Shown piece after piece: positions 11,599 through 13,181 of a stretch of 64,000 nt of DNA. Under the pieces are notes generated by a model, which saw only the letters and a list, made by a program, of their open reading frames with translations, ran no database searches and had not been told where the DNA came from. The number at the start of each line of letters is the position of its first letter. Positions within the stretch are counted from its first letter, which is position 1. The translations under genes and the position numbers were made by a program. The DNA comes from Escherichia coli (GTDB taxonomy: Bacteria > Pseudomonadota > Gammaproteobacteria > Enterobacterales > Enterobacteriaceae): NCBI RefSeq assembly GCF_002854065.1, contig NZ_CP024147.1; one strand, 5' to 3'.

Positions 11599-11852
11599 AT
11601 GCTGCCGCAGCATAGCGATATTGAAATAGCCTGGTATGCTTCAATACAGCAGGAGCCGAATGGCTGGAAGACCGTCACCACACAGTTCTACATCCAAGAA
11701 TTCAGTGAGTATATTGCGCCACTGCAGGATGCTGTAGATCTGGAAATCGCAACGGAGGAAGAAAGATCGTTGCTGGAAGCCTGAAAAAAGTATCGGGTGC
11801 TGCTAAACCGTGTGGACACTTCCGTAGCACCAGATATCGAGTGGCTTATTCA
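11599..11852 (+). pseudogene. tfaX: Second tail-fibre-assembly remnant (tfaX-like): Tfa C-terminal segment with in-frame stop, then truncated by IS1
   Basis: [49 protein letters not shown], about 90% identical at DNA level to 10666-10800. Confidence 0.7.
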
Positions 11853-11907
11853 GGTGATGCTGCCAACTTACTGATTTAGTGTATGATGGTGTTTTTGAGG
11901 TGCTCCA

Positions 11908-12183
11908 GTGGCTTCTGTTTCTATCAGCTGTCCCTCCTGTTCAGCTACTGACGGGGTGGTGCGTAACGGCAAAAGCACTGCCGGACATCAGCGCTATCTC
12001 TGCTCTCACTGCCGTAAAACATGGCAACTGCAGTTCACTTACACCGCTTCTCAACCCGGTACGCACCAGAAAATCATTGATATGGCCATGAATGGCGTTG
12101 GATGCCGGGCAACCGCCCGCATTATGGGCGTTGGCCTCAACACGATTTTCCGCCATTTAAAAAACTCAGGCCGCAGTCGGTAA
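11908..12183 (+). CDS. insA: IS1 InsA
   Basis: 91 aa [39 protein letters not shown]... Confidence 0.92.
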
Positions 12184-12605
12184 CCTCGCGCATACAGCCG
12201 GGCAGTGACGTCATCGTCTGCGCGGAAATGGACGAACAGTGGGGATACGTCGGGGCTAAATCGCGCCAGCGCTGGCTGTTTTACGCGTATGACAGTCTCC
12301 GGAAGACGGTTGTTGCGCACGTATTCGGTGAACGCACTATGGCGACGCTGGGGCGTCTTATGAGCCTGCTGTCACCCTTTGACGTGGTGATATGGATGAC
12401 GGATGGCTGGCCGCTGTATGAATCCCGCCTGAAGGGAAAGCTGCACGTAATCAGCAAGCGATATACGCAGCGAATTGAGCGGCATAACCTGAATCTGAGG
12501 CAGCACCTGGCACGGCTGGGACGGAAGTCGCTGTCGTTCTCAAAATCGGTGGAGCTGCATGACAAAGTCATCGGGCATTATCTGAACATAAAACACTATC
12601 AATAA
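12102..12605 (+). CDS. insB: IS1 InsB (transposase made by -1 frameshift fusion with InsA)
   Basis: 167-aa ORF overlapping insA in the -1 frame, ...[16 protein letters not shown]... Confidence 0.92.
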
Positions 12606-13181
12606 GTTGGAGTCATTACCGCTTATTCAACCATAATAAACAGTATGTATATCATAGGTTATTAATTGTGAGTTTTTTCGGTGTGTTATTTGTTTGTTTG
12701 ATGTTATGCTTTTGCGCCCCAAAAGGTTGTTTAGATGTATTTTATCAATTGATTTTCAATATCGTTTAATAAAGAAAAATTAAGCAAGCTGGATGTTGGT
12801 TTTTTGTTAATTGAATGGTTCTAATAATGTTTTTTTACTGTTGTTGAATGTGACTTGATAAGAAATGCAAGTAAAAATGATACTCTTTTTATTTTAAATT
12901 CAAACGGTTGACATATATATAGCAAGAGGTTTCAGGTGCGTTGTAGTGAGTTTATGTTAATAAAAAGTATAGTAAGCGTTGAAAAATGTAACTTTGAAAT
13001 ACGTTAGAATAAAAAACAATATACATATAATAATTTAATCTTAAATGAAATTTATTAAAATTTGCAAACTATAATTTTGTGTATAAAAATATAAATGCAC
13101 ATCATCCTGATTATGATTGTGTATTTAATTGGTTGTTATTTGACTGCTATCAACTTGTTTTAATTTTATGATAGGTGCAAG

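Follow-up and report, generated by a model that had tools for sequence, protein, structure and literature searches.

IS1 insertion in the tfaX remnant and direct tfa repeats flanking ybcY at the right end of the DLP12 prophage remnant in Escherichia coli

Genes and features between tfaD and appY

The region described here belongs to a 64-kb stretch of Escherichia coli DNA, which was analysed over its whole length and is referred to below as the window. The features that bear on the argument are collected in Table 1. The first of these, tfaD, is an intact tail fibre assembly gene, the product of which matched the Pfam profile in an open frame and over its full length (profile positions 1-130 of 131, E 3e-45). 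Upstream of tfaD lies a DLP12 deletion scar (9034-10224), in which a 274-aa ORF joins the N-terminus of the terminase small subunit Nu1 in frame to the Ig-like C-terminal domain of tail tube protein V; between this Nu1-V fusion and tfaD lies a truncated gene for the tail assembly chaperone G.

Table 1. Features of the tfaD-appY interval, crossover positions in the tfa::tfaX hybrids and copies of the ybcY cassette at other loci. Positions are those of the window, except for the four cassette rows, which are numbered within the locus named.
Feature	Position	Strand	Remarks
tfaD, intact tail fibre assembly gene	10235-10819	+	194 aa; Pfam PF02413 Caudo_TAP
Left (D) copy of the tfa 3' direct repeat	10654-10796	+	40-bp exact block 10676-10715
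11-bp perfect inverted repeat with T-run, between convergent tfaD/ybcY ends	10834-10866		putative bidirectional terminator
ybcY, intact class I SAM-dependent methyltransferase	10874-11542	-	222 aa
tfaX, 5'-truncated tfa remnant	11599-11852	+	tfaD homology 11703-11845; internal TGA 11782-11784
9-bp target-site duplication GCTTATTCA, left copy	11844-11852	+	abuts IS1 left end
IS1, complete 768-bp element	11853-12620	+	IRL 11853-11875, IRR 12598-12620
insA	11908-12183	+	91 aa, GTG start
insB' reading frame	12102-12605	+	open, 167 codons
TTTAAAAAAC, A6C -1 programmed frameshift motif	12156-12165	+	joins insA to insB'
9-bp target-site duplication GCTTATTCA, right copy	12621-12629	+	abuts IS1 right end
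tfaX-appY intergenic region	12630-13181	+	AT-rich (22-30% GC)
appY ORF	13182-13931
Crossover in hybrids L004, L006	10675-10716		tfaD coordinates; 40-bp identical block; tfaX TGA inherited, annotated 'internal stop'
Crossover in hybrid L008	10735-10751		tfaD coordinates
Crossover in hybrid L007	10756-10765		tfaD coordinates
Crossover in hybrids L005, L009	about 10768-10771		tfaD coordinates; more diverged allele
Cassette in L013	3173-4369		beside trpA-ompW, ST131-type strain
Cassette in L016	2625-3818		beside potB
Cassette in L015	2778-3779		locus in O157
Cassette in L001	5275-7005		argU/appY site, behind complete J-lom-stf module

The methyltransferase gene ybcY gave 37.6 bits with Pfam Methyltransf_12 (cut-off 30) and 28.8 bits with Methyltransf_23 (cut-off 27); NCBIfam held no named family for either YbcY or TfaD. 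The gene stands outside the tail operon and in the opposite orientation, and its GC content is 0.40-0.43 against about 0.50. The hairpin predicted between the ends of tfaD and ybcY is a putative terminator that would serve both genes. A simple scan of positions 10780-13200 flagged no terminator, and this hairpin was missed because its loop is 11 nt long. The scan also returned six promoter-like sites where 5.5 are expected, and is uninformative; the promoter-like site at 11598-11571 on the minus strand is a prediction only. A gene remnant may also occupy the ~160 bp upstream of ybcY, given that at locus L016 RefSeq annotates a frameshifted DinI-family fragment (3568-3647, equivalent to about 11620-11700 of the window, minus strand).

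Read with its stop as W, the second tfa sequence, tfaX, matched the Caudo_TAP profile only at positions 75-130 of 131 (E 1e-23), and similarity to the Tfa family is confined to the last 56 codons of its frame. Whereas tfaD gave a full-length match in an open frame, tfaX did not: the profile match is partial, the frame is broken by a TGA where tfaD carries TGG, and the last codon is displaced by IS1. In agreement with this, the tfaX allele of the empty site is annotated by RefSeq as encoding a tail fibre assembly protein that lacks its N-terminus and is broken by an internal stop. The remnant thus carried an in-frame stop already, as a previous reading of the sequence alone (below, the sequence-only reading) had noticed. 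With no 5' part and an internal TGA, tfaX is a pseudogene fragment that was dead before IS1 arrived, and the phage-derived part of the DLP12 prophage remnant ends with it.

The element that abuts tfaX is a complete IS1. Its terminal inverted repeats, GGTGATGCTGCCAACTTACTGAT (IRL) and GGTAATGACTCCAACTTATTGAT (IRR, given as the reverse complement of the right end), agree at 18 of 23 positions, and IRL occurs once in the 64-kb window, against none expected by chance. The conceptual InsAB' fusion (232 aa) matched the NCBIfam model for IS1 family transposases, NF033558, with 241.9 bits (E 5e-72, cut-off 100). At the nucleotide level this copy is 99.74% identical to one that RefSeq annotates as 'IS1-like element IS1B family' and 98.8% identical to one annotated as 'IS1A family'. 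Those defining features of the IS1 family that can be read from a sequence are all present, and the InsAB' frame, which would be joined by the predicted frameshift, is intact.

The IS1 insertion and the tfaX-appY spacer

The sequence-only reading had assigned a 9-bp target duplication to IS1, and this was confirmed by exact inspection: the nonamer GCTTATTCA is repeated without mismatch at both ends of the element, and these are its only two occurrences in the 64-kb window. E. coli 100416, isolated from stool in Gambia, is the closest relative, with 99.97% identity in the flanks of IS1 and 99.89-99.98% identity over the whole window; only two extra IS elements set the window apart from it. The region of 100416 that is identical to ybcY is annotated WP_000239881.1. 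At the position of IS1 this strain has an empty site, in which the segments corresponding to window positions 1-11852 and 12621-15111 overlap by exactly 9 bp, namely GCTTATTCA. Empty sites are also present in many complete E. coli genomes, which match both flanks over a span of 924 bp (= 1701 - 768 - 9). The presence of the nonamer as a single copy in 100416 and as a duplication in the window is the signature of a simple and recent IS1 transposition, in which an IS1B-type IS1 would have entered the extreme 3' end of tfaX and generated the usual 9-bp duplication.

Other parts of the window were also compared with E. coli 100416. A complete 1331-bp IS2 (15112-16442, with the 5-bp target duplication GGACT) splits ompT, which lies on the minus strand and is intact in 100416; in Shigella and EIEC, losing OmpT is known to be pathoadaptive (PMC5723341). 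The inactivated ompT made a Shigella or EIEC origin worth considering, but none was established, the nearest relative being the E. coli stool isolate 100416. Further downstream, two hok/sok loci of the hokE type are arranged in tandem (38318-38784 and 38820-39287, period ~503 bp, 95-96% identity), each with an Rfam sok match of 79-80 bits (gathering score 59). At the corresponding position 100416 carries one copy, followed by an IS421 element.

The rarity of the insertion was assessed with a 1701-bp query across IS1, searched against 5,426 complete E. coli genomes. The same IS1 insertion was found in none of the 5,426. Only two records (H1 and H2) covered at least 80% of the query, and both have IS1 inside ybcY instead. 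The tfaX-IS1 junction had no exact match in the GTDB representative genomes; it was also absent from the JGI metagenome contigs, which is weak evidence because IS junctions often remain unassembled in short-read data. The insertion site is new to the collections searched, and with its absence from the complete genomes the insertion is usable as a lineage marker for the source strain. The fact that the junction is absent from every other genome and metagenome contig searched would also fit an assembly artefact, for instance an IS copy misplaced by a repeat-collapsing assembler. This explanation is hardly credible however, since both IS1 junctions are base-precise, and since real IS1 transposition, unlike misassembly, characteristically duplicates 9 bp that the empty site contains only once, as is seen here without a mismatch.

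Independent IS1 copies were observed at two other loci, one of them inside ybcY (L002, 4002-4769, window equivalent 11122/11123) and the other just upstream of it (L011, 4214-4981, window equivalent 11612/11613). In L011 an inverted and truncated nfrA-ybcH lies beyond IS1, an indication that IS1 mediated an inversion of the appY-nfrA segment.

In the empty site the tfaX frame ends in EWLIQP followed by the stop, and IS1 is inserted after the second base of the Q codon, two codons before the stop, so that only the last codon of tfaX is displaced. The description of IS1 as interrupting a second Tfa C-terminal fragment is therefore formally right, but the element does not lie in the middle of the remnant, and the displacement of this one codon is functionally irrelevant. 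The insertion point coincides with a boundary in base composition, phage DNA of about 47% GC (0.46-0.49 over tfaX) giving way to a GC content of 0.22-0.30 between 12630 and about 14100. IS1 is known to favour AT-rich targets.

Most likely the insertion is neutral or nearly so, as tfaX was already dead and the insertion is separated by more than 400 bp from all mapped appY promoters, which lie downstream of it. The transcription starts of appY in K-12 lie 25, 81-85 and 113 bp upstream of the ATG (PMC4469952), and IS1 leaves the elements described for the spacer intact. The literature on tfaX and ybcY yielded only regulatory studies of the tfaX-appY spacer; neither this insertion nor recombination between tfa and tfaX was found in it. 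An alternative is that the insertion is adaptive and regulatory, IS1 altering appY expression either by breaking an H-NS-bound AT-rich tract or by supplying an outward promoter. In K-12 the spacer is an H-NS-silenced 'promoter island' (PMC4469952) and the top target of RcdA in SELEX (PMC3535384), and the IS1 described here is oriented towards appY and borders the 22-30% GC tract on its upstream side. Moreover, the neighbouring ompT has been knocked out by IS2 in the same lineage, and other genomes contain independent IS1 insertions close by. Nevertheless, we consider a regulatory effect decidedly unlikely. The right end of IS1 is 561 bp away from the appY start codon, far upstream of the mapped starts, the promoter scan gave no enrichment, and the allele is a singleton among the 5,426 genomes, which gives no hint that selection has repeatedly favoured precisely this position. 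The insertion is best regarded as probably neutral, and as a marker of its lineage.

Direct tfa repeats, tfa::tfaX hybrids and the ybcY cassette

The 3' part of tfaD and the tfaX remnant contain direct repeats on either side of ybcY (10654-10796 and 11703-11845, at an offset of 1049 bp), which in blastn are identical at 126 of 143 bases (88%). Ungapped extension lengthened the alignment to 157 nt at 85% identity, and the two copies share exact blocks of 13, 40, 14 and 15 bp. The sequence-only reading had proposed tfa segments of ~135 bp with about 90% identity in these places; the direct repeats are real, but over the segments as then delimited the identity is 86-87%. Enclosed by the repeats are the hairpin, the reverse-oriented ybcY and the ~160 bp upstream of ybcY. 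Repeats of this kind would be substrates for homologous recombination, and because they are in direct orientation, a crossover between them excises the segment in between and is unable to invert it. The proposal that they might mediate either deletion or inversion of the methyltransferase gene had consequently to be dropped as far as inversion is concerned, and for deletion it was borne out by the following results.

The product predicted for the deletion (10400-10700 joined to 11750-11852 and 12630-12830, 605 bp in all) was searched for in complete E. coli genomes. Nine genomes matched it in one piece with 96.0-99.8% identity, and hence contain tfa::tfaX hybrids, whereas genomes with the normal arrangement covered only 66% of the product. 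The uninterrupted ybcY-tfaX-appY arrangement was present in 564 genomes. Six of the nine hybrids (all but H74-H76) were inspected base by base, and in each of these six, tfa directly adjoins appY-ompT-envY and ybcY is absent. The SNPs that are diagnostic for the D and X copies revealed a single, clean switch from D-type to X-type sequence in every one of the six, and the switches fall in four different places (Table 1). Four different switch points mean that at least four independent crossovers took place.

These results support deletion of ybcY through the tfa repeats, the direction of the event being derived from parsimony. In some natural strains a crossover between the full tfa and tfaX would have fused the two genes and removed ybcY. 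What had been speculation on repeat-mediated deletion has thereby become a documented event, represented by nine hybrid genomes that have lost ybcY. Formation of the hybrids presumably depended on homologous recombination, and could have occurred by deletion in cis or by replacement, an incoming lambdoid phage crossing over in tfaX; either route makes use of the repeat, and ybcY is lost in both. The diverged hybrids L005 and L009 (96% identity) could in principle represent an old intact allele.

The order of events might also have been the reverse, the hybrids next to appY being ancestral and the tfaD-ybcY-tfaX arrangement having arisen by insertion of a cassette, in which case the repeats would record insertions. 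In four hybrids (L005, L007, L008 and L009) the gene for an intact Tfa of 191 aa indeed follows a full J-lom-stf tail module, and the 3'-most bases of tfaX, which abut appY, differ from the right copy of the cassette at other loci. However, the four clean D-to-X switch points are best accounted for by independent crossovers between D and X copies that already existed. In addition, L004 and L006 carry the TGA of the pseudogene inside an otherwise full-length tfa and deviate from the predicted deletion product by one base in 605, and the cassette is present with both flanks at other loci, and hence older than the appY locus. We regard an ancestral state of the hybrids as unlikely, and retain deletion of ybcY through the repeats.

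The sequence-only reading had spoken of a duplicated tfa remnant. The pair is not a local duplication in this strain, however: the two repeats form the conserved borders of a tfa'-ybcY-'tfa cassette, which prophages carry at four or more sites. The cassette extends from about 10674/10722 to 11845, and consists of the tfa 3' end, the hairpin, ybcY, its upstream region and the 'tfa fragment; with ~97% identity and essentially without gaps it occurs at prophage right ends at a minimum of four chromosomal sites (Table 1). Most of the 4,107 matching genomes have the upstream region of ybcY joined to 'tfa, as judged from entries sampled at even intervals along the ranking, and the identical YbcY protein, WP_000239881.1, is annotated in both O157 and commensal-type strains. 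The methyltransferase cassette has a wide distribution at the right ends of prophages, and its presence at at least four unrelated prophage sites suggests that the methyltransferase has spread or been selected.

Other left partners are found as well. In L012 and L014 a different tail-fibre module, comprising a tail fibre domain protein and a 97-aa hypothetical protein, joins tfaX at position 11749, which falls within a block of tfaX identical to tfaD. This indicates that the tfa 3' end at the border of prophage and chromosome is a recurrent recombination joint. Furthermore, the last few codons of tfaX at the appY site are unlike those of the right-hand copy of the cassette elsewhere, which has a tfaD-like tail followed by the same hairpin; tfaX is therefore a mosaic itself, with an extreme 3' end that is part of the resident DNA on the appY side. 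The occurrence of the cassette at at least four sites, its boundaries inside tfa copies and the at least four excision-type crossovers at the appY site lead to a further idea, namely that the repeats are portable homology arms by which the ybcY cassette moves among lambdoid prophages, ybcY being a self-propagating accessory gene kept by selection. We put this forward tentatively, as a possibility that at present seems somewhat doubtful.

Together, the results are very probably best explained by a recent, near-neutral insertion of IS1 into the dead tfaX, at a locus where the direct tfa repeats act as substrates for recombination.

Comparison with known systems

The locus does not hold a new kind of element, an IS1 with a 9-bp duplication being textbook and the tfaD-ybcY-tfaX layout being annotated in K-12. 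With the IS1 family the copy shares the length of 768 bp, the imperfect inverted repeats of ~23 bp, the A6C frameshift between insA and insB' and the 9-bp target duplication, and from known E. coli copies of the IS1B and IS1A types it differs solely in its insertion site. Gene order and orientation are those of the right end of DLP12 in K-12 (tfaD-ybcY-tfaX-appY-ompT-envY), and K-12 records matched a query of positions 8600-11850 with 98.4% identity; their annotation includes a methyltransferase and two features for tail fibre assembly. The differences are the IS1 after tfaX, the splitting of ompT by IS2 and another deletion scar (Nu1-V-G') upstream of tfaD.

Silenced operons can be activated by IS insertions upstream of them, and IS1 and IS5 alter expression in this manner at bgl and flhDC, which are silenced by H-NS. 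In the present case an IS likewise lies upstream of an AT-rich, H-NS-silenced regulatory region, but at more than 400 bp from the mapped starts, so that the likeness to bgl and flhDC is a resemblance only.

The arrangement also differs from the invertible tail-fibre segments served by Gin, Cin or Pin, in that the tfa repeats are direct and not inverted, and no invertase was found among the window ORFs between tfaD and appY. In L013 a partial recombinase gene precedes the cassette, which is not an invertible arrangement.

A further parallel is provided by two established concepts, the morons of lambdoid phages and mosaic exchange at tail fibre and tfa genes, which were reportedly described by Hendrix and co-workers, by Haggard-Ljungquist in 1992 and by Sandmeier in 1994. 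As a possible moron, ybcY is reverse-oriented, has a lower GC content and is placed between tail-operon sequences at the right end of a prophage, and the promoter and terminator that would make it autonomous are putative; as in the mosaic exchange of lambdoid phages the crossovers lie within conserved tfa sequence. What distinguishes the ybcY cassette is that it includes the tfa 3' end a second time, as a partial copy, and is therefore flanked by direct repeats, with nine hybrids against 564 intact arrangements. It thus shows, in a small and clean case from nature, how a prophage is probably remodelled through homologous recombination between 143-bp repeats that are 88% identical.
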